Notes: generated by a model from the letters alone, not told the origin. 64,000 bases of DNA from Candidatus Roizmanbacteria bacterium RIFCSPHIGHO2_02_FULL_37_13b (GCA_001789395.1 MFZK01000022.1:6921-70920); one strand, 5' to 3'. Shown: positions 4,780 to 26,563, counted from the stretch's first letter. Made by a program: numbers and translations.

Positions 4780-5760
4780 TTAATCTTTTGTCCTGGAGAT
4801 TTCGACGAGGATTGTCTCAAGGATAAGAGCTATCGGTACAGATAGAAGAATACCTAAAAAACCTCCCAGTTTACCACCGACTGTCAATGCAATCAGAGTA
4901 AATATCGGATTTAAACCGACGGCTTTTCTCATAACCATTGGCACAACCAGATTGTTTTCAAGCTGTTGAATTAAAATGTAAAGAACGATAGTGTAAACCG
5001 CCATGACAGGGGAAATCGCCAAAGCCACCAAGACCGCAGGAATTGCTGATATTATCGGCCCGATCATCGGTACGATCTCCAAGATTCCGGCCAAGACCGC
5101 CAAAGGCAAGACATATTTCATCTGAAGTATGAATAATCCAAAATAGGTAGCTAAACCAATTAGAGTCATTAAAACAATCTCTCCCCACATCCATGCCGAT
5201 AATCTTTTTTCTGCTTTATTTAAGATAACGACAATCTCGCCTGCTTTTTTCTCATTTAGAAATTTATATAAAAAATTCTGCAGGAATTTTTCTTCTACTA
5301 AAAAATAAAAAGTGAAAAAAAGGATAGAAACAATAAATATTACATTAGAAAAAAGTCTTGTTATCACCTGAATAATATTCTGGGTGATGTCCGGCAAAAA
5401 CGAAGTAAGTGAAGAAATATTAAAATAATCCGACACCATCGGAAAGATATTTGAAATCAATATGGGTAACGATTTAACAAAAATCAAACTTTCCTCGAGA
5501 AGTGGTGGAACAACCACGGCAAAAAGAAATAAAACCCCAAAAATTGCAGAAATAAAAACAATGATAGTTGACAGCAATCTGGGGATTTTCCCCTTCTCCA
5601 AATAATTAACCGCCGGCTTTAACGCACTCATTAAAATGAAAGCTAATAAAAGACCAAAAATTAACTCTCTGACCTCCCAAATAACCTTTAAAGATAAAAT
5701 AAAAAAAACCGTGAAGATAATTGTCCTGGAGGATATTTCTATTTTTTGAGACATTTTCAT
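4780..5760 (-). CDS. AI-2E family transporter (PerM/UPF0118-like permease)
   Basis: A 326-aa polytopic membrane protein with the family-typical architecture and a C-terminal ILEIVPMIGPIISAIPAVLVAL segment. Confidence 0.7.
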   Translation of the reverse strand: MKMSQKIEISSRTIIFTVFFILSLKVIWEVRELIFGLLLAFILMSALKPAVNYLEKGKIPRLLSTIIVFISAIFGVLFLFAVVVPPLLEESLIFVKSLPILISNIFPMVSDYFNISSLTSFLPDITQNIIQVITRLFSNVIFIVSILFFTFYFLVEEKFLQNFLYKFLNEKKAGEIVVILNKAEKRLSAWMWGEIVLMTLIGLATYFGLFILQMKYVLPLAVLAGILEIVPMIGPIISAIPAVLVALAISPVMAVYTIVLYILIQQLENNLVVPMVMRKAVGLNPIFTLIALTVGGKLGGFLGILLSVPIALILETILVEISRTKD

Positions 5761-5803: not shown

Positions 5804-6508
5804 CTACCTTGCTAAAGTCAAAGCATAAACTCGACGAGCGCCAGATAATTTAAGTTTACGAGCAATTTCTTTTAAAGTTGATCCTGTCGTCCAAACATCA
5901 TCGACGATAATCAAATCTCTATTTTTAATTAAACGACATTTCCCCTTAGCAAGGGTAAATGCACCTCTTACATTTAAGTATCTTTCTTTAGGGGTCTTCA
6001 AACTTACCTGTGGTTTTGTATCAATATGTCTTTCTAAAAGTGTAAAGTTTTTATCGATGTTGATTTTTTTGGCGATGATTGTCGATAAAATTTCAGACTG
6101 ATTAAAACCACGTCTGTGAAGACGATTAGTACTAAGCGGTGTAGGAATTATTATCGGATTTTCAGTGATTTCTTTAAAAGTTGCCAACTCGAAAAGTTTA
6201 CTTATGGGAATGGCATCGACAAGATCTTCAACAGCGCTTGTTACTAACCGATATTTTATTTGCTTGATTATCCGCTTAAGAAGGGCATTATAAAATAATA
6301 GACTCTTCAAACCATCAATGCCTGTTTTCCTTTGACACCCGGGATGAGTCAACCCAAAGAAACTCGGTTTTAGACAATAGGGACAAGCATCTCTATCAAT
6401 AATTTTCAGGTCTTTTTGGCATTTTGTGCAGATATAAACACCAAGAACTCCGCACCCAAAACAACGTTTAGGAAAGAAGACGTCAATCAAATTATTAAAT
6501 AAAGACAT
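5804..6508 (-). CDS. comFC: ComF family protein (phosphoribosyltransferase domain)
   Basis: N-terminal Cys4 finger (CFGCG...CTKC...CPYC) and a C-terminal PRTase motif LIIVDDVWTTGSTL. Confidence 0.8.
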   Translation of the reverse strand: MSLFNNLIDVFFPKRCFGCGVLGVYICTKCQKDLKIIDRDACPYCLKPSFFGLTHPGCQRKTGIDGLKSLLFYNALLKRIIKQIKYRLVTSAVEDLVDAIPISKLFELATFKEITENPIIIPTPLSTNRLHRRGFNQSEILSTIIAKKINIDKNFTLLERHIDTKPQVSLKTPKERYLNVRGAFTLAKGKCRLIKNRDLIIVDDVWTTGSTLKEIARKLKLSGARRVYALTLAR

Positions 6509-16957: not shown

Positions 16958-17266
16958 TTAATTTTCCTTGAGCAGGGTTCTTTTTAAAGCTTGTTTTAGT
17001 TGTTTTCTACCGAAACCACTTTTAAGAAATTTCTCGCGGGCTTTGGCATCAACTTTGCTAATAAAGTATTCGTAGTGAATTAGTTTGAATGGTCTTCTTA
17101 ATCTTGTTGAAGTTACTTGACCTTTGACATGCGCTATTAGGCGTTTCTTTAAGTCTGTAGTGTAACCAATGTAAAGACCTTTGTCTTTGTATGAAAAAAG
17201 AACATAGACGTAGAATTTATTTATAATTGTCGCAATTGATGCGACTGAAACGTCTAACGTTTCCAT
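16958..17266 (-). CDS. GIY-YIG nuclease family protein (UPF0213-like)
   Basis: FYVYVLFS...GLYIGYTTDLKKRLIAH...FKLIHYEYF contains the GIY-YIG core. Confidence 0.8.
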   Translation of the reverse strand: METLDVSVASIATIINKFYVYVLFSYKDKGLYIGYTTDLKKRLIAHVKGQVTSTRLRRPFKLIHYEYFISKVDAKAREKFLKSGFGRKQLKQALKRTLLKEN

Positions 17267-17289
17267 TTTGTATTAAATATATGTTCACG

Positions 17290-17407
17290 GTCGCGTCTGA
17301 CGCGACACGCTTAAATCACGTTTGACCACGTCAGACGTGGTTTTACGTGATTTACAAACGCAGTTTACCTCGTCTTTCAGACTCGGTTAAACCGCGTTTG
17401 ACGCGGT
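17290..17407 (-). repeat. cluster of GC-rich palindromic hairpins (CGTCnGACG-type); probable native ssrA trailer
   Basis: GTCGCGTCTGACGCGAC at 17290-17306. ACCACGTCAGACGTGGT at 17325-17341, nested inside AAATCACGT/ACGTGATTT (17313-17321 and 17345-17353). ACCGCGTTTGACGCGGT at 17391-17407. Confidence 0.6.
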
Positions 17408-17425
17408 GGAGATGCCGGGAGTTGA
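17406..17425. repeat. att core copy (displaced 3' fragment of ssrA)
   Basis: GTGGAGATGCCGGGAGTTGA is identical to 24202-24221. Its reverse complement TCAACTCCCGGCATCTCCAC is the T-loop/T-stem/acceptor 3' end of the tmRNA. Confidence 0.8.
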
Positions 17426-17554
17426 TTTGAACCAAATACAACGCTACATTTGGAAATGGTACAACATTATTAAATCTCAAGAGCTTCTAATGGCTGGTTA
17501 AATATGTGAGAAATTATTATCAACAACAATCTATATCTTGAAGCTAATAGGAAG

Positions 17555-17983
17555 TTATTCTTGCGTACCTAAGAACCTATCCACGGTGGCTTTAAGATCT
17601 TCAGCATCAAATGATAGTTTACTTAAACTTGCATCTGCCCACGGGGTATTCCCTGCAGATAAACCAATTATTCCAATAGCGAGTTGGCTTTGTCGAATTA
17701 AACCAGCAATTTCTGCACCAGTACCATCACCTAAGTCTCCATCTAGAATAGACACACCAACTCCTTGAAGATCGTCTGGTATCATTCTCCTTGCTTCAGT
17801 TGCATTTGGAGTTGAAACAACTTGATGACCATCTCTAGTCAATATGCTTGAGACTATATTTCTCCAAGAGTCACCATCTTCAACATGCCAGACAGTGCCA
17901 CCAACTTTTGTTTCTGCCATAGAATTTATTATAACATATAATAGATTACTTTGAAAGCCTAAATCCACGCTAGTTGACGACAT
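17555..17983 (-). CDS. stand-alone receiver (CheY-like REC) domain protein candidate
   Basis: The pattern VWHVEDGD...VSILDGDLGDGTGAEIAGLIR...IIGLSAG...SKLSF matches DD/D/T(S)/K receiver positions. An alternative start is the ATG at 17920 (MAETKVGG...). Confidence 0.5.
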   Translation of the reverse strand: MSSTSVDLGFQSNLLYVIINSMAETKVGGTVWHVEDGDSWRNIVSSILTRDGHQVVSTPNATEARRMIPDDLQGVGVSILDGDLGDGTGAEIAGLIRQSQLAIGIIGLSAGNTPWADASLSKLSFDAEDLKATVDRFLGTQE

Positions 17984-18118
17984 TGGGACGTATTATAAGG
18001 ATAAAATGTACTTTTATCAGAGTATTCAATACCCCACCACACCCGCTCGCACCAATAGCTTAGTTATAATTACACCCAAAAAAAGTCGGCGATATGTTTG
18101 TGACATTTCGTAGTCGTT

Positions 18119-19936
18119 CTACTTGAACTCCCCGAATTTAATAAGTTTTGGATACTTATCAATAAATTCATCTATTGTGTCTAATGAAGAATAGACATAT
18201 TCCATAAGCCTTATTCCGATAGTATCATAGGATGGTGTTGAACCTCCCAATTTATCCCAAGCGTTCCATACTCTCTCCCGATCAGATTGATTTTCGAGTT
18301 CTTCTATATAATAAAGTGTCACCTCTAATACTCGATGCAAATTCTTCTTCTCCCAATATTCATCAGGCATATCTTTTAACCTTTGCGGAGCTAATTTGTA
18401 TATGTCCTCAAGCATATTCCTCTTTTCTGTTTCATCAATGTATCCAACTGGCGCAGGAATATGAAAACTAAAATCATCTCCATAGGTCGACATTGTGGTA
18501 CCAAGCTGCCAAGGTTTTCTCATGTGTTCAATAAATATATTTCGATACATCCGGAGATTAAAAAAGAGCCAAATAATATCTTTTTTGTGGCATTCCCAAA
18601 AGACTTTTAGCTCTCCTGAATATGTTTTTGCTTGTAAAAGATTGACTAACCCAGCAAGGTTAAGATCGTACTCTCCAGTATTAATCTTATTAGTCTTGGG
18701 AGCTTCATATCCTGCAAGGTAACCGATAATATATGACCACTGGTCAAGCAGAAGATTCCCATATATCAATAGACTCTCCATATCTTGACTCATTTGCTCT
18801 CCTAGACGATCACGTTTATTACTAGCAGTTTGCAGTCGCTTTGCGAATGGTTTTCCGGGAATTATTTTAGTTGGAGTTAGCGAATCAATTTTAATTTGAA
18901 GCTCAGTCAACTCTTTTCTGGTGAGTGCCATTCTCATCATAACTCTCTGAACATCTTTTATTCTTCTAATCAAATATCCGACATGATAAAATAATGCTGA
19001 AGGCTTGCCGGGATTCATGCTTACAAGTTTTTTTTCAACCTGTTTAATTCTCTCTAGGGATTTATCACATAGATATATTATCTTTGCAGGCTTAATCGGG
19101 ATTGGATACATCAGGTTTTTAACAAAGTTCACACGTTTTTTTAAACCTCTCTTTTGATAGTCCTTTGCTACTTTGGTTAGCATGACGTTCCTTCTTGTTT
19201 TATTCGTCGTTGATAGAGCCTTTGCCATCAAAGCCTCCGTTTGTGTTGCATCTTCTCCAAACCTATCTGTCGTCTTTTGTATTGCAGCTACTGCTTGTTC
19301 GAGCTCTTTTGTTCTATCCTTTGGGTTGTAAACAGTATTTGCCTTTATTCGGTGATATAGTGCTTTGATTTTAAACATGAGCTCATCCTCGAGTCCCTGC
19401 TGAGCATGACTCAACATTTTATCGGCAAGCTCTGATGTTTTGTGAGTGCCTAGATCATCGTCATGCTGTTCCATTATTAGGAACATATAGTAGAAGCTCA
19501 TCTCTTGGTTATATGTTTGTATCTGCCCCAACTCTTTATATAAAGTCGCTCGACGTAAGATAATTTTTGGATCTGGTCTTTGTAATTTACTTCCCAATTT
19601 TCTTTTCAAGAACTCGAGCTCGACTCTTTTCAATATCACGTCATTTTTTGGAAGCACATTCTTAAACTCTGATAATGACTTCATAAAATTCCTGCGTGCT
19701 CTCTTATCATTATTATCCTTCAGACCCTTTTCTCTGAAATACAGGGCTTTATACATCGTTGATATTTGTTTAGCTTCTGGATTAGAACTTTGTACCATTA
19801 GTTCGGATGCTTGCAATAAAAGCTCTGGCGGAGTTTTCTCTTTATTAAACTTTTTATATAAGTGAGAAGCCTCCTGCTCATATTTATCAGTGAGGAATAC
19901 TTCCACTTTTGGAGGTTTGTCAACAGGTTCACTCAT
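18119..19936 (-). CDS. 605-aa hypothetical protein with helical N-terminal half and C-terminal RNIFIEH (Rx5H, HEPN-like) motif
   Basis: Long uninterrupted ORF. R465-N-I-F-I-E-H471 is encoded at 18524-18544. I cannot assign a family. Confidence 0.6.
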   Translation of the reverse strand: MSEPVDKPPKVEVFLTDKYEQEASHLYKKFNKEKTPPELLLQASELMVQSSNPEAKQISTMYKALYFREKGLKDNNDKRARRNFMKSLSEFKNVLPKNDVILKRVELEFLKRKLGSKLQRPDPKIILRRATLYKELGQIQTYNQEMSFYYMFLIMEQHDDDLGTHKTSELADKMLSHAQQGLEDELMFKIKALYHRIKANTVYNPKDRTKELEQAVAAIQKTTDRFGEDATQTEALMAKALSTTNKTRRNVMLTKVAKDYQKRGLKKRVNFVKNLMYPIPIKPAKIIYLCDKSLERIKQVEKKLVSMNPGKPSALFYHVGYLIRRIKDVQRVMMRMALTRKELTELQIKIDSLTPTKIIPGKPFAKRLQTASNKRDRLGEQMSQDMESLLIYGNLLLDQWSYIIGYLAGYEAPKTNKINTGEYDLNLAGLVNLLQAKTYSGELKVFWECHKKDIIWLFFNLRMYRNIFIEHMRKPWQLGTTMSTYGDDFSFHIPAPVGYIDETEKRNMLEDIYKLAPQRLKDMPDEYWEKKNLHRVLEVTLYYIEELENQSDRERVWNAWDKLGGSTPSYDTIGIRLMEYVYSSLDTIDEFIDKYPKLIKFGEFK

Positions 19937-19947
19937 TGTTTAATTTT

Positions 19948-20388
19948 TTACTTTTTACCGAATAAACTACCGATCCATGCCCAGAATCCACTCTTCCTTA
20001 CAACCGGAACAGATCGTTGCTCGTTTATTTGTGTTGGGATAGGTGTATTTGATGGTTGGAGCGTTGGAGACGGAATCATCGTGGGAGTTGGAGTTCTGGT
20101 CGGTTTAATAGTAGGCTTCCGTGTAGGGATAATGGGTCGTCGTGTTGGATACGGAGTAGGTTGCTCAACTACCGGTTGTTCTTGAACTTGCTGAGCCGGT
20201 TGCTCTACTGGCGCACTTCCTCCTCCATGACAATGTCGTTCATCCCATGGCACGCCCCACTTATCACAATTTGTTCGACAATAATGACAACCGTCTGCTG
20301 CGGTATTGCCGGGATGGGCTGATACTGATTGTGATGAAACAAGGAAAAGGACAAGTAAGAGTGCGATTAATAATTTATGTTGTTTCAT
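19948..20388 (-). CDS. secreted YHYH-domain-like protein with Pro/Thr-rich linker
   Basis: Signal peptide MKQHKLLIALLLVLFLVSSQSVSA, then HPGNTAADGCHYCRTNCDKWGVPWDERHCH (resembles the YHYH family), then a PT-rich repeat region. Confidence 0.55.
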   Translation of the reverse strand: MKQHKLLIALLLVLFLVSSQSVSAHPGNTAADGCHYCRTNCDKWGVPWDERHCHGGGSAPVEQPAQQVQEQPVVEQPTPYPTRRPIIPTRKPTIKPTRTPTPTMIPSPTLQPSNTPIPTQINEQRSVPVVRKSGFWAWIGSLFGKK

Positions 20389-20487
20389 AGTGATTGCTAT
20401 TATACTCTATATTCTAATTTGTGATGATTATAGTCATCATTTTTATTGCTCATTACTTATGATTTTATAAACCTATAAAATAACTGA

Positions 20488-20853
20488 TTATTTATTCTGG
20501 TTGAGTGATGAAGTCTCTTTGACGAGTCTTTGTAGTTCCGCTTCAAGCTCTATCTTCTCATCATTAAGCACTTTTAATTTCGCTTGCTCGGTATTAAGAT
20601 CGCACCGGTCAAGATGAAGCATGCATTCCTTGGTAATGATGTAGGCAGAAGAACAATTTGTAGTCAGTTTATTTGATACCTCAATATTTGCAACACAGTT
20701 AGACATAACAGCACGTCCTTTTAGCATATAGGCTTCGTGTTGCTGTTTGAGGTTGAAGGTGTGCCAGATCAGCACAAGAGATAAAATCGTTGCTAGTCCT
20801 GCCCAGAGTAGTGTTATGTGGCTTCTTAAATTGAGCTTCTTCAGATTTACCAT
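20488..20853 (-). CDS. membrane-anchored coiled-coil hypothetical protein
   Basis: A 121-aa protein with one TM segment (ITLLWAGLATILSLVLIW) and a C-terminal heptad-like segment. Confidence 0.4.
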   Translation of the reverse strand: MVNLKKLNLRSHITLLWAGLATILSLVLIWHTFNLKQQHEAYMLKGRAVMSNCVANIEVSNKLTTNCSSAYIITKECMLHLDRCDLNTEQAKLKVLNDEKIELEAELQRLVKETSSLNQNK

Positions 20854-21110
20854 ACAAGACCCTCCTTGAGGCAGCTTGCATATTGAAATGAGTCTAGTCC
20901 TAAATAGGGATTATATCGTGCTTGCGATAGTTCTCGGCATCGAAAAAGCACGTTGGGTCGATAAATAAAGATGTAATAGAAAATTGCCAGACATAAAAGA
21001 ATGAAGAGGCCTTTTTTTGTTACGAGTTTATCCATATCGTCCCGATTATACATGTGGGCACAAATGAATACAAGGAGTATGTTGTTACAAGGAGTATTCT
21101 TTTTTACCAT
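20847..21110 (-). CDS. small hypothetical membrane protein
   Basis: An 87-aa ORF. The likely real start is an internal Met (MDKLVTKKGLFILLCLAIFYYIFIY, near 21035). Confidence 0.3.
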   Translation of the reverse strand: MVKKNTPCNNILLVFICAHMYNRDDMDKLVTKKGLFILLCLAIFYYIFIYRPNVLFRCRELSQARYNPYLGLDSFQYASCLKEGLVW

Positions 21111-21112
21111 AA

Positions 21113-21346
21113 GTGCCTATGGGGAAGCCTATCAGTCACAGACATATTCTCAAAGACTTTGGCAAGCAATTACAGCTTGTTCGTAAATCAAAGAATATCT
21201 CGCAAGAAGAACTTGCTCATAAGCTATCAATGCACAGAACGTATGTTGGTATGATCGAGCGAGGAGAGCGAAATCCAACGATCCGTACTTTGTATAAGAT
21301 AGTTCAAGTCTTAAAGATCAAGTCTTCGGAGATCTTGCCGTTCTAA
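21113..21346 (+). CDS. XRE/Cro-C1 family HTH transcriptional regulator
   Basis: LVRKSKNISQEELAHKLSMHRTYVGMIERGERNPTIRTLYKIVQVL is a canonical HTH_3 pattern. The gene is divergent from the island cargo operon. Confidence 0.8.
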   Translation: MPMGKPISHRHILKDFGKQLQLVRKSKNISQEELAHKLSMHRTYVGMIERGERNPTIRTLYKIVQVLKIKSSEILPF

Positions 21347-21574
21347 TATAATGACATAGTCTGTCATGTTATTATATATATGTATATATATCTATATATA
21401 ATATATACGGTAGAGCTTCTACTTAGTCCTTCTTGCCTGTTGTTCTAATAGTGTCTGACAAGAAGATGAAAAAATCTGTGCCGTTGCTCTCTTCTGATGC
21501 TATTCTATCTATAAAATAGATATTCATTGAAGTCGACTTCATACTCTGTAGTTTGTTACAAAGCTCTAAACCCC

Positions 21575-21603
21575 TTGACAGCAACTTGTATTTATGTTAG
21601 ATT
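21575..21603 (+). promoter_or_regulatory. sigma70-like promoter candidate inside island non-coding hub
   Basis: TTGACA (21575-21580), a 17-nt spacer, then TAGATT (21598-21603). Confidence 0.4.
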
Positions 21604-21803
21604 GATTATTAGCAACAACAACTAAACAAACAAACAAACATTTAAGCGAATCTACTAAATAAACAATTTTTAGCAACAAGTCGTTTATTCATCTTAAATG
21701 TCGGCACATACACTGGTTTTTTAACGCAACAACAAGCAGATCTAATTTTGCGTAATAAGACTTTTGGTGTGCCGCAGTAGACGTTATTAATAAAATTACT
21801 ACG

Positions 21804-21829
21804 GGCAGCCAGAAGTGGCTGCCTTTTTT
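21804..21829 (+). terminator. Rho-independent terminator candidate
   Basis: GGCAGCC (21804-21810), loop AGAAGT, GGCTGCC (21817-21823), followed by TTTTTT (21824-21829). Confidence 0.6.
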
Positions 21830-21842
21830 GTTGGCAATAAAT

Positions 21843-22307
21843 ATGAGAATTACTAGCGAGCTACTAAAATTAAAAGCGATCGAGTTTGAAAAAAAGCTCA
21901 ACGGCTTTTGTCGATACGAGAGAAGTCGAATCTTACTTCTGATCAATAAAGACCTATCGGATGAAGAGTTTGTACTCTACTGCATTTTCGATGATGTCAT
22001 CTCCGACTGGGACAATGGTCACGACAAGTTTGGCTCATTTGAGGTGATACCAGACTTATTTGCAGAGTTTATTGGGTGGACCCCTTCAAAGATCAGAAGA
22101 ATCCTAAAAAGCCTTATTACAAAAGGCTTTATTGCGTTTCTCGGTATGAATATGTACGTCATGGTTGGAGTTGAACTTAAGAAGCACAAGCGGGTAAGAG
22201 ATGTGCCGTTTGATTATTATGCCGAACTAAAAAAGCTCGTTGAAACACACTTGATTAAAAGTTCTACAAATCATAACGATGATGCTAAAAGTAATCCACT
22301 CAACTAA
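21843..22307 (+). CDS. hypothetical protein with winged-helix-like segment
   Basis: The ORF track starts at TTG 21828; the first ATG is at 21843. FIGWTPSKIRRILKSLITKGFIAF resembles a wHTH recognition region. Confidence 0.4.
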   Translation: MRITSELLKLKAIEFEKKLNGFCRYERSRILLLINKDLSDEEFVLYCIFDDVISDWDNGHDKFGSFEVIPDLFAEFIGWTPSKIRRILKSLITKGFIAFLGMNMYVMVGVELKKHKRVRDVPFDYYAELKKLVETHLIKSSTNHNDDAKSNPLN

Positions 22308-22554
22308 TAATTTGCTTCCAAATATAACAAATATGGAAATAAATATAACGATTCGGACTGTTGAGCAAGCTTCCGATGGTCGTAAATCTAAGTATCCTCT
22401 AAGTGGATCTAGGTATCGTACTTCTTCATTAACAAGTTCTCCTGAGGAGTATTTAAAGATCTGGGAAGAGATGGGGAAGCCAGAAAACTTCACACCTGAA
22501 GACATGTATTGGTTGGATATGAATGTTCATGAGGATCCGGGGATTCCAAGTTGA
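22279..22554 (+). CDS. hypothetical protein
   Basis: A 91-aa ORF in the island with no recognisable motifs. The start is uncertain. Confidence 0.3.
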   Translation: MMLKVIHSTNNLLPNITNMEINITIRTVEQASDGRKSKYPLSGSRYRTSSLTSSPEEYLKIWEEMGKPENFTPEDMYWLDMNVHEDPGIPS

Positions 22555-22565
22555 ATGATTAAATT

Positions 22566-22724
22566 ATGATTCCGATCAGCGAGGCGCGCACCATATTAGG
22601 AGAGAAGTATGCACACTTAACCGATAAGGATATTGAGCGTATGGTTGTATTTATCTACAATTTGTGTAAAGATGTTATTCACGTTGTTGTAAGCAGCAAA
22701 TATGAAAAAGGCAATAATTTATTG
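22566..22724 (+). CDS. small ORF (52 aa) overlapping the recombinase start; possible accessory/directionality factor
   Basis: Own translation: MIPISEARTILGEKYAHLTDKDIERMVVFIYNLCKDVIHVVVSSKYEKGNNLL. It is below the ORF-track size cutoff, and only its position supports a role. Confidence 0.2.
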
Positions 22725-24270
22725 TAGGGTTTCGTCTAAACGGCAGGTAGAAGAAGGTCATGGACTGGATGGACAAGAATTAAGATGTAATCAATACGCT
22801 AAAATTCAGGGCTATGAGGTTGTAAAAGTGTTCAAAGAAGAAGGTATTTCGGGTGGGATTATCGACCGACCACAAATTCAAGAACTTCTTGCCTATTTAG
22901 ATAAACATGGAGATGGAGTTATCGTGATAATCGACGACATTAAACGCTTCGCCCGAGATGTTGTTGGGCACTTTAACTTGCGACAGGCAATCTATTCCAG
23001 AGGAGCAACGCTTGAGAGCCCTTCGCATCGCTTTGAAGAAACTCCTGAAGGAAAATTTATTGAAACGATACTTGCTGGAGCAAGTGAACTGGAACGAAAT
23101 CAAAATGCTCGACAGGTAAAAAACAGGATGAAGTCTCGACTTGAGCAGGGGTATTGGTGTTTTCGCTCTCCTCCAAGAGGACTAATCTACACAAAAGTTC
23201 CTATTCATGGCAAACTCCTTGTTTCTGATGAACCACTGACTGCAATCTATAAGGAAACGATCGAAAGATTTGAAAAAGACATGCTTAATACGCCCGAACA
23301 GGCGCGTCAATTTACTCTCTTAAAATATAAAGAGCATAACATCGACAAACCACTATCCATACACGGCATGGAAAGCATTTTAAGCGAACTTCTATACACA
23401 GGGTACATAGAGTACCAACCATGGGGAATACCGCTTCAAAAGGGCAAACATACAGGCTTTATCTCCCTTGAGACACATCACAATGTACTGGCGAAGTTAT
23501 TTGGTAAAAAACGTAAACAAATACGACAAGACTATAATCCCGACTTCCCATTACGAGGGTTTGTATTATGCGATGTTTGCGGAAAACCAATGACGGCTGC
23601 GTGGTGTCAGGGAAGAAGCAATAAGTATCCCAAGTATTGGTGTAAGGACAAGGAGTGCTCGTACGGCTCAAAATCTGTACCTAAAACCACAATAGAGGAT
23701 GATTTTATTGCTTTATTAGATGGGGTCAAACTAGACTCTGTAAAAGCACAACTTATTCTAAGAGTCCTCTCAAAGACATGGGGCGAAGAAAAAGAATCAG
23801 TCTCAATGCTCAAGTTGAATGCTGAACGCAATAAACATGGGCTTAATGAAAAGATAGCAAATCTGTCAAAGATAATAAGCGGTACAAAAGACGACGATCT
23901 ACTCATCGCATACGAAACTCAACTCAAAGAGTTTATTATGCAACGTAAGAGCGTAGCCAATCCAACCCCAATAGAAGAATATACTGAAGAAGAGTTTCGA
24001 ACCGCTTCTGATATGGTTTTTGGGATTTTAGAAGAGCCTGTCAGAGTATGGAAAAACCCACGCTATGAGAATAAAGCAACTATCGTACAAATGTACTTCC
24101 CTAATCGCTTGTCTTATCGAGTAAATGAAGGGTTTCGAACCGTTGAGATAGAGCCTACTATCAAGCTAATCAACTCACTTGACCCTTCAAAAATCCCGTT
24201 TGTGGAGATGCCGGGAGTTGAACCCGGGTCCGAGAAAACACCTGTGATACAAGAGTTTAGTCAGGGTTAG
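22702..24270 (+). CDS. large serine recombinase (resolvase N-domain + recombinase domain + zinc ribbon)
   Basis: MKKAIIYCRVSSKRQ contains the catalytic Ser context, followed by DRPQIQELL...IIDDIKRFARD. Zinc ribbon CDVCGKPM...WCKDKEC. The last 69 nt overlap ssrA in antisense. Confidence 0.9.
   Translation: MKKAIIYCRVSSKRQVEEGHGLDGQELRCNQYAKIQGYEVVKVFKEEGISGGIIDRPQIQELLAYLDKHGDGVIVIIDDIKRFARDVVGHFNLRQAIYSRGATLESPSHRFEETPEGKFIETILAGASELERNQNARQVKNRMKSRLEQGYWCFRSPPRGLIYTKVPIHGKLLVSDEPLTAIYKETIERFEKDMLNTPEQARQFTLLKYKEHNIDKPLSIHGMESILSELLYTGYIEYQPWGIPLQKGKHTGFISLETHHNVLAKLFGKKRKQIRQDYNPDFPLRGFVLCDVCGKPMTAAWCQGRSNKYPKYWCKDKECSYGSKSVPKTTIEDDFIALLDGVKLDSVKAQLILRVLSKTWGEEKESVSMLKLNAERNKHGLNEKIANLSKIISGTKDDDLLIAYETQLKEFIMQRKSVANPTPIEEYTEEEFRTASDMVFGILEEPVRVWKNPRYENKATIVQMYFPNRLSYRVNEGFRTVEIEPTIKLINSLDPSKIPFVEMPGVEPGSEKTPVIQEFSQG
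24202..24221. repeat. att core copy within the intact ssrA 3' end
   Basis: GTGGAGATGCCGGGAGTTGA is identical to 17406-17425. Confidence 0.8.
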
Positions 24271-24597
24271 ATTATTTTAAACTCTATCTCGCCTTGCAAA
24301 ATAACCAAAAGTCAGACAAGAAGCCGATTAAGGCATTGTCGGGTTTTTAAACCAATCGGGAATGTTTAAAAACCGTACCTGCGGTTGGTTATCTCTTATA
24401 TCAAGTTGAACCGCGGAAAACCTGAAAAAGAGCCTTGTTTCTTATTTAGGCAGCGTAAGCATATTGAAATGCCTGGCGGCCATAAAAAGCTCGGATAGCT
24501 TCAGATTCGTCATCTGCATCTATATGTTTTCTAGTTAACGGATAGATCCGCCCCAACCTCTTGTAAAAGTGCATCCCCGTCGACACCGTTCATCCCC
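24203..24597 (-). ncRNA. ssrA: tmRNA (SsrA)
   Basis: Minus-strand 5' end GGGGATGAACGGTGTCGACGGGG. 3' end CCGGGTTCAACTCCCGGCATCTCCA (T-arm plus acceptor with a G3:U pair). An internal tag frame ends ...YAYAA-TAA. The gene lies directly downstream of smpB. Confidence 0.85.
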
Positions 24598-24714
24598 GTT
24601 AGAAACTCTTAACGAGTTATTTTCGAGTTTAGAGTTTCTTACGTCCGCCTAAGCTCGCTCCGCAAGCCGCAGTAGAAATCTACTAAGGCGAGCGGTAAGA
24701 GCGGGCGGACAATA

Positions 24715-25164
24715 TTAATACTTCATCTGCTCTTTCATTTCCCGCTCAATTCTTCTATTCTCATCACGATTCTTCTCGACTTTCTTTTTTTCCCAGGTTT
24801 TTTTACCCTTAGACAGTGCTATTTCTAGCTTAATTAAACTCTTCTTATTATAGCATGCGATAGGCACGATCGTCAAATTGGCGCCGGCTGAAAGTTTGGT
24901 TTTTAAGCGTAATATTTCAGACTTATGAAGCAATAACTTTCTGGTTCTTCTTGAATCATAGCTTTCAGGTCTGGCATATTCATATATAGCAATTTCTGCA
25001 TTTATTAAAAATACTTCTGATCCGACAATCTTAACGTATGAGCCTTCAAACTTAATCCTCCCCTGTCGCACTGTCTTAACTTCAGCCCCGGTTAAAGAAA
25101 TTCCAGCTTCGTATTTTTCGATTATTTCATACTCCCGATTTATATTCCGATTTATCACCTTCAT
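24715..25164 (-). CDS. smpB: SsrA-binding protein
   Basis: EAGISLTGAEVKTVRQG...RRTRKLLLHKSEI...KGKKTWEKKK is a canonical SmpB pattern. Confidence 0.9.
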   Translation of the reverse strand: MKVINRNINREYEIIEKYEAGISLTGAEVKTVRQGRIKFEGSYVKIVGSEVFLINAEIAIYEYARPESYDSRRTRKLLLHKSEILRLKTKLSAGANLTIVPIACYNKKSLIKLEIALSKGKKTWEKKKVEKNRDENRRIEREMKEQMKY

Positions 25165-25222
25165 AGGCTTATTTTATCAAAACGACTTAGCTAAAACGTA
25201 GAGTCAGGTGTAAAATACATCT

Positions 25223-26563
25223 ATGCAAATAATTACTGATTTACAGATTCACTCAAAGTATTCACGGGCGACCTCACCTAGGCAAAATTTACCGGAAATA
25301 TCACTTTGGGCTTCAAAAAAAGGAATTGATGTTATAGCTACTGGCGACTGGACACATCCATTGTGGTTTCGTGAAATTCAATCACAACTAAAAGAAGTCT
25401 CTCCAGGACTTTTCACACTGAAAGAAACCCTACCGGAGCAAAAACGAGATGTCTACTTCTTACTCTCAACTGAAATTTCCAGCATCTATACACAAGGTGG
25501 AGCTACACGACGCGTCCATAATCTTATCTTTTCACCATCGATTGAGACTTCCTCGAAGATAATTAGCCAATTGCAGAAACAAGGATGCAATTTAATGGCA
25601 GATGGCCGACCTATCATTGGACTTTCGTCAATAAATCTACTTGAATTGGTTTTATCTATAGACCCAAACTGTTTATTCATCCCCGCTCATGCCTGGACAC
25701 CCTGGTTCTCGATCTTTGGCTCAAAATCAGGCTTTAATTCAATAAAAGAATGTTTTGGCGAGCTTCATAAACACATCTTTGCGATTGAAAGCGGCTTGTC
25801 TTCTGACCCTGCTATGAACTGGCAAATCGACGAGCTGGACAGCCGATCTATTCTATCATTTTCCGACGCTCATTCCGGACCAAAGCTCGGTCGCGAGGCA
25901 ACGGTTTTTATTCCAACGACAAAACAATCGAACAATGAAATAATTAACTATTCATATAGAGATATTGCCGATGCTATTAAACAAAAAACAGATGGCCTTT
26001 TAAAAATCGCTTATACGATAGAATTTTTTCCCGAGGAAGGAAAATATCACTATACCGGGCATCGTGATTGTGGAATAAAATATTCAACAATAGAAAGTAA
26101 ACAAAAAGGAACAATCTGTCCAAAATGCGGCAAGCAGCTTACGGTTGGAGTAGAAGATCGTGTCACTGAACTGGCAAACAGAACGATTACTCAGGGTGAT
26201 TTATTATTATCCGAAAACAGTCAGGGATTAGTCTTTGTCAGTGATAAAGCAAAGACTCGGAAACCTTTTGTCTCGATAGTACCGCTTTTGGAAATATTGG
26301 CTGAAATTGATGCTTCTCCGACAAAAAATTTAGCCTTGTATGAAAATCTTGTATCAAATTTAGGCAGTGAATTCGATATTCTGCTTAAAAAGCCTCTCAC
26401 AGAAATTGAAAAATACGGTAGCGAAAAATTAAAAAAAGCAATTGAGATTGTAAGAAAAAGACAAGTTAAAATCGATCCGGGATATGATGGAGTATTTGGT
26501 AAGGTTAAAGTCTTTGATGAAAGTACAAAAGAACATGACGAAACCCAGTCAGCGCTATTTTAA
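25223..26563 (+). CDS. endonuclease Q-like PHP-domain protein
   Basis: The DLQIHSKYSRATS N-terminus is PHP-like. An internal zinc ribbon is CPKCGKQLTVGVEDRV. Size and layout match the EndoQ/TIGR00375-type family, from memory. Confidence 0.65.
   Translation: MQIITDLQIHSKYSRATSPRQNLPEISLWASKKGIDVIATGDWTHPLWFREIQSQLKEVSPGLFTLKETLPEQKRDVYFLLSTEISSIYTQGGATRRVHNLIFSPSIETSSKIISQLQKQGCNLMADGRPIIGLSSINLLELVLSIDPNCLFIPAHAWTPWFSIFGSKSGFNSIKECFGELHKHIFAIESGLSSDPAMNWQIDELDSRSILSFSDAHSGPKLGREATVFIPTTKQSNNEIINYSYRDIADAIKQKTDGLLKIAYTIEFFPEEGKYHYTGHRDCGIKYSTIESKQKGTICPKCGKQLTVGVEDRVTELANRTITQGDLLLSENSQGLVFVSDKAKTRKPFVSIVPLLEILAEIDASPTKNLALYENLVSNLGSEFDILLKKPLTEIEKYGSEKLKKAIEIVRKRQVKIDPGYDGVFGKVKVFDESTKEHDETQSALF

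Follow-up and report, generated by a model that had tools for sequence, protein, structure and literature searches.

Integration of mobile elements into the 3' end of ssrA, the gene for transfer-messenger RNA (tmRNA), by a serine recombinase has been known since 2011 in Dehalococcoides. The ssrA islands of this genus use the serine recombinase DsiB, and the DsiB open reading frame (ORF) overlaps the attachment (att) site (McMurdie et al., 2011; PMC3146451). It was suggested that full function of the enzyme may be confined to the circular form of the island; its C-termini were reported to be divergent, and the stop used in the circular form was left open (PMC3146451). In genome surveys of islands, serine integrases were not known to use tRNA genes (tDNA) according to Islander (PMC4383910), and they were assigned to t(m)RNA genes in 14 of 297 cases by TIGER, where experimental proof was asked for (PMC7192596). 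Here we describe a locus in a 64,000-nucleotide stretch (the window) of Candidatus Roizmanbacteria bacterium RIFCSPHIGHO2_02_FULL_37_13b (GCA_001789395.1, MFZK01000022.1:6921-70920). Positions 17406-24221 of the window are very probably a small integrative element with cargo, whose own large serine recombinase (LSR) placed it at the outermost 3' end of ssrA. Such LSR-driven ssrA islands occur in the Candidate Phyla Radiation (CPR), and this one belongs to a very large clade that targets t(m)RNA 3' ends. What is new is a conserved and selected C-terminal helix that the recombinase would possess only in its episomal form. An earlier note on this DNA, made from the sequence alone, had proposed the island and called a serine recombinase with an ORF across its att site less usual; DsiB had already been described likewise (PMC3146451). 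The same note held CPR genomes to be poor in such islands, but elements of this kind proved to be abundant in our homolog search and genome scan.

The likeness to the Dehalococcoides islands extends to several features. In both, the 3' end of ssrA is the target and is repeated directly over 20 bp. Next to ssrA lies the gene for a serine recombinase of about 520-540 aa, and the ORF of DsiB always overlaps att, with a stop only inside ssrA or a neighbouring island. The islands are small to medium in size, lack transfer genes of their own and occur as tandem or remnant copies (cf. L049 and P0127/P0129 below). The hosts differ, however, being CPR/Patescibacteria in one case and Chloroflexota in the other. 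The window has neither DsiA, a second and smaller serine recombinase, nor the six-gene module (RecF-like, ParB, Mom and RNA-polymerase-domain proteins) and carries an ORF of about 50 aa instead; when the other island ORFs were compared with the Resolvase, ParB, RecF and Mom families in Pfam and PHROGs, no match was obtained. Sister elements of the window's island have 5-8 bp in common with the target, located at the very end of the tmRNA and not midway through the T-loop. Unlike that of DsiB, the episomal tail is conserved here and under purifying selection, the two systems being compared by description. No Dehalococcoides record was found among the best 80 genome loci of our scan.

The 20-mer GTGGAGATGCCGGGAGTTGA has two exact copies in the window, at 17406-17425 and 24202-24221, as the earlier note had stated; no additional copy with up to two mismatches was found in the window, and shuffled sequences give an expectation of 0. 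The tmRNA that the note had placed antisense to the repeat and near smpB was called by ARAGORN at 24202-24597 on the minus strand, and the full-length match to Rfam RF00023 (24200-24597) scored 109 bits against a gathering score of 47. Read as its reverse complement, the repeat comprises the 3' part of the T-loop, the 3' strands of the T-stem and acceptor stem, the discriminator A and one C. The ssrA gene itself is intact and encodes the tag peptide ADDESEAIRAFYGRQAFQYAYAA. Site-specific integration into t(m)RNA genes classically leaves this signature, an intact gene together with a displaced 3' fragment.

Relatives without the island were recovered by scanning JGI metagenome contigs with a degenerate pattern able to match attB, attP, attL and attR. 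Five contigs (L026-L030) from four distinct relatives were returned, all of which represent the empty site. In each of them the tmRNA 3' end runs straight into aaaccgcgtttgacgcg, a 17-nt hairpin-forming trailer that is found in the window directly left of the left repeat (17389-17405). The displaced 36-37 nt are identical in L028 and L029 (from 17389) and in L030 (from 17390), and one mismatch in 41 nt is present in L026/L027. In those contigs that extend far enough, the genes stand in the order smpB-ssrA-GIY-YIG; the window has the same genes, but 6.8 kb separate the tmRNA from its displaced 20-bp 3' end. Because the relatives are uninterrupted and possess the same trailer that now stands at the far end of the island, we interpret 17426-24201 as inserted DNA whose integration left 20 bp from the 3' end of ssrA in two copies. 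All of the features by which t(m)DNA islands are recognized are present: the gene is intact at one end and a 3' fragment of it is displaced to the other, an integrase lies between them, and relatives have an empty site. One further line of evidence was considered and rejected. Logan/MEGAHIT contigs that end inside the core (17419, 24209, 24203) were first read as mixed integrated and empty populations; however, the tmRNA ends of other species have 30-40 nt in common with that of the window, and the breaks are not taken as evidence of excision because breaks of the k = 31 graph fit k-mers of tmRNA 3' ends and trailers from those species.

The composition of the segment is also distinct. The island has a GC content of 38.2%, compared to 34.8% in the rest of the window, and none of 219 other 6.8-kb segments reaches this value (maximum 37.4%). 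Its tetranucleotide distance (0.246) is the most deviant in the window, where the maximum elsewhere is 0.172. The higher GC content noticed earlier was thus corroborated; the step is sharp at the left edge, but at the right it is blurred by the likewise high GC content (about 40%) of ssrA, smpB and the gene that follows. The interval in question, 24600-26563, covers ssrA, smpB and an adjacent 446-aa gene (weak MJ0043_C match); the host neighbours on both sides have about 30% GC.

The recombinase consists of a catalytic domain (residues 1-105, nucleophile S11), an alpha-E helix (115-148), a recombinase domain (161-266), a zinc ribbon (288-342 and 429-492; C290, C293, C314, C319) and a coiled coil (346-418). 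Pfam identified Resolvase (PF00239) at residues 4-151 (E = 2.2e-27) and Zn_ribbon_recom (PF13408) at residues 283-338, and the protein also matches PHROG 95 (integrase). Residues Y7, R9, S11, Q15, R82 and R85 and the four zinc-ribbon cysteines are invariant in 26 homologs. The AlphaFold model has a mean predicted local distance difference test score (pLDDT) of 83.6 and contains the catalytic domain, a long alpha-E, the recombinase domain, the zinc ribbon and a 70-residue coiled coil, seen as a helical hairpin at 346-418. A sequence search of PDB returned a match to the catalytic domain only, and the full length was revealed by the fold search: over 515-538 columns the model matches Bxb1 (9iu2_A, E = 1e-17), PhiC31 and other LSRs, with C-terminal domains matched in 4kis and 6dnw and in a Listeria integrase structure. 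As modelled, the island's recombinase has the full architecture of a genuine LSR, and attP x attB recombination at a central dinucleotide is predicted; the precise insertion, the 5-8 bp cores of sister elements and the circular forms (below) point to it indirectly. Neither a tyrosine integrase nor a second serine recombinase was found among the island proteins with Pfam and PHROGs.

The repeat enters the LSR frame at codon 501, and its final 22 codons fall within the tmRNA gene, in antisense. The protein ends in ...FVEMPGV-EPGSEKTPVIQEFSQG, where EPGSEKTPVIQEFSQG (residues 507-522) is encoded by the 16 codons that are antisense to the tmRNA past the core; ORF and Pfam analyses therefore agree with the 522-aa resolvase-type recombinase reading through the core that had been described. 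When 24221 is joined in silico to 17426, as in an excised circle, a 531-aa ORF is obtained that ends in ...VEMPGVDLNQIQRYIWKWYNIIKSQELLMAG with a TAA stop at 17499-17501. The alternative tail of 25 codons that the earlier note had derived was reproduced in this way. A side observation concerns annotation. In the GenBank gene table of a contig (L002/L017, GCA_001788225.1) no gene is called at the position of the LSR, and only sources at JGI and ENA have the 522-aa protein. The LSR seems to be lost in gene calling, perhaps due to the overlap with the tmRNA gene; if such ORFs are dropped, surveys built on deposited proteins would miss this clade.

A homolog search with the LSR gave 2805 matches below 1e-10, of which the best 120 (510-550 aa, 40-62% identity) were examined; the few homologs with a named source are labelled as Patescibacteria, Parcubacteria or Microgenomates. 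About 106 of these 120, mostly from CPR genomes, end in VEMxGxEPxSE (...(L)VEM-x-G-x-EP-x-SE...). This ending is the antisense translation of the tmRNA acceptor and T-arm, and those homologs are therefore integrated copies. Nine others end in the conserved tail ...VD-x5-SWNQIE(E/D)YI(F/W)(K/R)WYP(V/I)L... (SWNQIEEYIFKWYPxL), which aligns residue for residue with the tail of the window's in-silico circle. Three of the nine were traced to contigs. L031 (10,950 bp) has an exact 127-bp terminal overlap and closes to a 10.8-kb circle that encodes an episomal-form LSR and a restriction-modification system (two DNA methylases, Vsr, HNH). L113 (5,553 bp) has a 30-nt (k-1) terminal overlap, giving a 5.5-kb circle with an episomal-form LSR and, as cargo, a DUF2321 protein with a Peptidase_M78 domain. 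In L112 (episomal-form LSR P0090) the recombinase is followed by element genes and not by a tmRNA. Because the circular contigs L031 and L113 encode an episomal-form LSR, free circular forms encoding the long LSR exist. The prediction that the enzyme has integration-state-specific C-termini has thus been borne out by homologs in both states, two of which are on circular contigs with the episomal tail. At its end (5552-5611), L112 also has a second LSR C-terminus and tail copy (KEASVDIDEISWKRIEDYIF), which could mean that two elements stand in tandem or that related elements were mixed in assembly.

The tail coding region was studied in twelve sequences from distinct elements. Across the 15-codon motif (S)WNxIExYIxKWYPxL, the proportions of synonymous (pS) and nonsynonymous (pN) differences were 0.81 and 0.29, giving a pN/pS of 0.35; as pS is saturated (about 0.8), this and the following ratios are only relative. 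The adjoining codons are free to vary, with pN/pS values of 0.90 for the five before the motif and 0.94 for the four after it. In nine full-length LSR genes, pN/pS was 0.37 for the catalytic domain, and 0.33 for alpha-E; the DNA-binding domains and the coiled coil ranged from 0.42 to 0.63, and the linker that precedes the core reached 0.89. By this codon comparison, the tail motif is constrained as strongly as the catalytic domain. In the AlphaFold model of an episomal-form homolog, the tail forms a helix (509-528, pLDDT about 71-75) after a disordered linker, while the tmRNA-antisense tail of the integrated LSR in the window has a pLDDT of 43-53. A search of the protein database with a profile of the tail only, in which 41 candidates were scored, identified ten short ORFs at attL that carry the tail (P0121-P0129, P0133). 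These are gene-finder calls in metagenomes, and their upstream parts are unrelated host sequence. In P0130-P0132, P0134 and P0135, by contrast, a C-terminal piece of the LSR is present and the end is the tmRNA-antisense peptide. Some constraint at the DNA level near the core also seems to exist, because GTGGAC and the hexamer TGGAAC are invariant in the tail alignment even at third codon positions. The motif is located 21-66 bp from the crossover, mostly outside a typical LSR att site of 40-50 bp. No convincing dyad symmetry was found in the attP arms, and the other arm has no mirror copy of TGGAAC.

Both ends of related islands could be seen in genomes. In a scan of species-representative genomes, at least 562 relatives of the LSR were confirmed among 600 candidate stretches. 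Among the matches listed, seven CPR loci have the tail motif on the same strand as the LSR, 3.4-7.2 kb upstream of it and immediately behind GTGGA, and so represent sister islands of which both ends can be seen. The identity between attL and attR in these seven is only 5-8 bp, namely GTGGA, sometimes with one to three more bases, as is usual for serine integrases. Since this is the sole identity of their ends, strand exchange probably takes place within GTGGA, which corresponds to tmRNA ...UCC-A-C, i.e., the end of the acceptor strand followed by the discriminator and the initial C of CCA. The 20-bp core in the window is an unusually long version, as the element holds 15 extra bases identical to the tmRNA. 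Sister elements span 3.4-10.8 kb.

Doubled tails were observed at two places. L049 has tail motifs at 6429 and 7432, about 1 kb apart, upstream of one LSR, and two of the short tail-containing ORFs (P0127 and P0129) are on the same 205-kb JGI contig. These doubles suggest tandem or remnant islands at ssrA, as in Dehalococcoides. The empty-site relative L030 has an orphan tail motif at 1655-1732 (VDKRQNSLNLIQEYIFKWYNILKSS), the closest match to the tail of the window, beside a Fic-domain gene and with neither a recombinase nor a tmRNA adjoining; this could be what is left of the left end of an element that decayed at a different site. The same arrangement of LSR and tmRNA, with VEM... tails, is present in four bins titled 'uncultured Gammaproteobacteria' (L036, L041, L042, L045), and L036 and L041 show the structure of sister islands. 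Their LSRs are 42-45% identical to that of the window, like those from loci labelled as CPR, and the bins may be mislabelled.

The element most likely works as follows. A small circle carries attP within the 3' end of the LSR gene, and the LSR would connect the GTGGA of attP with its counterpart at the ssrA terminus. The tmRNA keeps its mature sequence and only its trailer changes, while the last 25 codons of the LSR gene move to the far end of the island and 16 tmRNA-antisense codons are gained. The tail-less integrated LSR must still be able to excise the element, given that circles exist. The conserved helix would then serve the free phase: as it is strongly conserved though dispensable for excision, it is most likely needed in the episomal phase, either for integration itself or for its control. 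Its physical removal upon integration would constitute a built-in record of state. In addition, the convergent and highly transcribed tmRNA gene may damp expression of the integrated LSR via antisense interference; a terminator scan detected no clear terminator after the tmRNA, before the LSR ORF, within the island. A more specific version, in which the helix acts as a built-in state sensor, so that the enzyme with the helix is tuned for integration and the enzyme without it is either unable to re-integrate or excision-competent, is put forward tentatively, with more doubt than belief. If this were true, direction would be set partly by the position of attP inside the gene and not only by a separate directionality factor, and the same logic may extend to the whole pan-bacterial clade at tRNA and tmRNA 3' ends.

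Several results weigh against this picture of a mobile element with a functional tail. Contigs that encode an identical SmpB, LSR or GIY-YIG protein (13-23, from about ten Rifle-aquifer and other assemblies) all carry the island or break there, so that the search for empty sites suggested by the earlier note succeeded for four relatives of other species and yielded none of the same strain. The exact attP junction was unmatched in IMG/VR viral contigs. The metagenome scan gave no attP or attB of this strain either, a result that is uninformative as the window's own fitting JGI contigs were also not returned. The evidence for a role of the tail is its conservation, measured with saturated pS. 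The domain search proposed for 22702-24270 returned Resolvase and Zn_ribbon_recom but not Recombinase (PF07508), which is precomputed for several homologs, and general Pfam and PHROGs scans found no transfer, replication or phage genes among the island proteins. The lack of a same-strain empty site would be expected if this copy were a fixed remnant that is no longer mobile in the Roizmanbacteria strain. This is possible, though we consider it doubtful: the cores match each other at 20/20 positions, no invariant residue is missing from the LSR and its ORF is undamaged, the detached tail can still be read through and has kept its motif, the small coupled ORF is intact, and rare excision would be invisible in assemblies. 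The failure to detect PF07508 is likewise what one would see if the repeat were a coincidence or arose by another mechanism and the recombinase were an unrelated invertase or resolvase. Yet no 20-bp repeat is expected by chance, comparison with the empty sites shows a precise insertion, the full-length LSR fold is present, and the in-frame overlap of LSR and t(m)RNA 3' end recurs in 55 of the 80 best genome loci; the empty sites and the 55/80 overlap effectively refute this explanation.

The tail invites a simpler account, in which an ORF across att is a neutral by-product of an attP located beside the LSR gene; the swap of tails would have no effect, and the tail would be kept for another reason, for example because it is an arm of attP, has a regulatory role or encodes a peptide of its own. 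A trivial explanation was weighed for DsiB by McMurdie et al., who saw divergent C-termini (PMC3146451). The third-position invariance of GTGGAC and TGGAAC suggests DNA-level constraint, the tail sits on a disordered linker, and gene finders do call short tail-containing ORFs at attL. However, the pN/pS of the motif (0.35) is close to that of the catalytic domain with synonymous differences saturated, and its substitutions are conservative (K/R, E/D, I/V, F/W/Y). The motif is 21-66 bp from the crossover and mostly outside the usual att site, a mirror TGGAAC is absent from the other arm, the short attL ORFs have unrelated host sequence in their upstream parts, and no opposite-strand ORF covers the motif in the window or L031. 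A neutral origin is thus judged improbable. We consider it still less likely, and indeed very unlikely, that the island is a small prophage or phage satellite and not a non-viral cassette. The match of the LSR to PHROG 95, the XRE repressor-like gene and the distant LSR relatives (32-36% identity) on 13-51 kb IMG/VR contigs would fit a viral origin, but capsid, portal, terminase, tail and lysis families were unmatched in every island protein (PHROGs, Pfam). Furthermore, sister elements are only 3.4-10.8 kb long, their recognisable cargo is restriction-modification (L031) and DUF2321 with Peptidase_M78 (L113), and no CPR element was found in IMG/VR.

The LSR of the integrative element belongs to a clade that is not restricted to tmRNA. 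In Alpha-, Beta- and Gammaproteobacteria, Nitrospirales, Melainabacteria and other groups, distant relatives (35-38% identity) run into tRNA genes at their 3' ends, again in the same frame; targets include tRNAs for Ala, Arg, Ser, Leu, Tyr, Met, Lys and Val (L053-L111). The end CUCCACCA is present in both tRNA-Ala and tmRNA. Among the best 80 genome loci (of at least 562), 55 have a t(m)RNA 3' end called by ARAGORN on the opposite strand inside the last 12-185 nt of the LSR ORF. This count is a lower bound because ARAGORN misses many CPR tmRNAs: in L034, L035 and others it called 0 genes despite VEM..EP tails and GTGGAGATG ends. In these sequences, the layout with an ORF running through att is the rule for a large LSR clade, at tmRNA in CPR and at tRNA 3' ends in other phyla. 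The distant relatives include cultured isolates (Filomicrobium insigne, Stappia indica, Roseovarius marisflavi and Nitrosomonas marina). Some relatives (L114-L127 in IMG/VR, 32-36% identity) are on 13-51 kb contigs predicted to be viral.

The element can be compared with several known systems. Like SCCmec, which is moved by CcrA/CcrB, it is a cargo cassette without transfer or replication genes that an LSR moves into the 3' end of a housekeeping gene, and SCC excises as a circle; unlike it, SCC targets a protein gene, rlmH (orfX), usually has two recombinases, and its recombinase ORF is not split by integration. With the integrases of Bxb1, PhiC31, TP901-1 and Listeria A118/LI it shares domain architecture, fold and short att sites with minimal identity, and unidirectional integration is expected. 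In sequence, the LSR is 12-18% identical to integrases with full-length structures and 21-29% to those of phage isolates; with the catalytic domain of TP901-1 taken singly, identity is 26-28%. In contrast to the LSR studied here, the phage integrases have attP outside the int ORF, mostly use protein-gene or intergenic targets, and have their direction set by a separate recombination directionality factor (RDF) protein. Location of attP inside a gene is known from integration-dependent immunity of mycobacteriophages, where the gene is that of the repressor, and from SSV1-type archaeal integrases, where attP is inside int. In these systems too, integration cuts an element gene at attP and couples the state of the DNA to the form of a protein and to its activity or stability; however, they use tyrosine recombinases, and either the repressor is affected or the integrase is split in two, whereas here a serine recombinase swaps its last 25 residues. 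The arrangement of intact t(m)DNA, island and displaced 3' fragment, with the integrase gene at the target end, is that of the tyrosine islands collected by Islander and TIGER, from which it differs in integrase family.

Serine integrases are textbook avoiders of tRNA and tmRNA genes, and the window belongs to a large cross-phylum clade that does the opposite. Small cassettes that can be excised from ssrA are common in CPR bacteria despite the tiny size of their genomes. In genome engineering, large serine integrases are among the leading tools, and control of direction is their main limitation. A helix that is conserved like an active site and present only in the free form offers a testable idea on such control, which would be cheap to check with protein variants on two site pairs.

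The features of the island and its flanks are listed in Table 1. The XRE regulator noticed earlier was verified by its Pfam HTH_3 match and clusters with homologs from the sister elements L031, L036 and L046. An ORF of about 50 aa is located directly upstream of the LSR in nine of the nine elements compared and in about 20 CPR loci; the 53-aa version in the window has no Pfam family and is a candidate accessory, partner or directionality factor of the integration module. No family match was obtained in Pfam, PHROGs or PADLOC for the cargo proteins of 605, 146, 121 and 87 aa, and none of the cargo matched a defence family. Relaxase, oriT, coupling-protein and type IV secretion families gave no match in Pfam and PHROGs, although remote homologs among the uncharacterised ORFs are possible. 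In the same databases virion structural, packaging and lysis families were not found, matches being limited to the integrase, the regulator and the receiver domain.

Table 1. Features of the ssrA island and its flanks in the window (HTH, helix-turn-helix).
Feature	Position	Strand	Basis or remark
GIY-YIG nuclease-family gene, host context, left flank	16958-17266	-	Pfam scan, synteny
Displaced original ssrA 3' end	17389-17425	-	attL core 17406-17425 and ancestral trailer hairpin aaaccgcgtttgacgcg 17389-17405
attL core, left repeat copy	17406-17425		Repeat search
Detached LSR 3' end, 25 codons DLNQIQRYIWKWYNIIKSQELLMAG and stop	17426-17501	+	Joined to the ORF only in the excised circle; matches tail of attP-form homologs
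142-aa protein, response-regulator receiver domain only	17555-17983	-	Pfam PF00072, E = 2.7e-7
605-aa cargo protein	18119-19936	-	No Pfam, PHROGs or PADLOC match
146-aa cargo protein, apparent N-terminal hydrophobic signal-like segment (by eye), Cys/His and Pro-rich stretches	19948-20388	-	ORF
Two small ORFs, 121 aa and 87 aa	20488-21110	-	ORF calls
XRE/Cro-type HTH regulator, 77 aa	21113-21346	+	Pfam HTH_3, E = 1.7e-16
Two ORFs upstream of the integration module, 154/159 aa (weak winged-helix signal) and 73 aa	21843-22554	+	ORFs, Pfam
Conserved 53-aa ORF	22566-22727	+	26-nt overlap with LSR start
Large serine recombinase (LSR), integrated form, 522 aa	22702-24270	+	Pfam, AlphaFold, invariant residues
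attR core, right repeat copy	24202-24221		Recombinase codons 501-506 and first two bases of 507; also tmRNA 3' end
ssrA (tmRNA gene), intact	24202-24597	-	ARAGORN, Rfam
smpB, host context, right flank	24715-25164	-	ORF

The GIY-YIG nuclease-family gene is a conserved downstream neighbour of ssrA in this CPR group (the window and L026-L030). The spacer between this gene and the displaced tmRNA end (17270-17405) is dense in short GC-rich inverted repeats, e.g., 17312-17332/17334-17354 and 17355-17367/17388-17400. These hairpins have the form CGCGTCnGACGCG, and the last of them, CCGCGTTTGACGCGG, is the tmRNA trailer. Because this trailer hairpin is kept in the five related contigs and recurs in L046, a genome of Gottesmanbacteria, it probably serves in termination or as a signal for processing.

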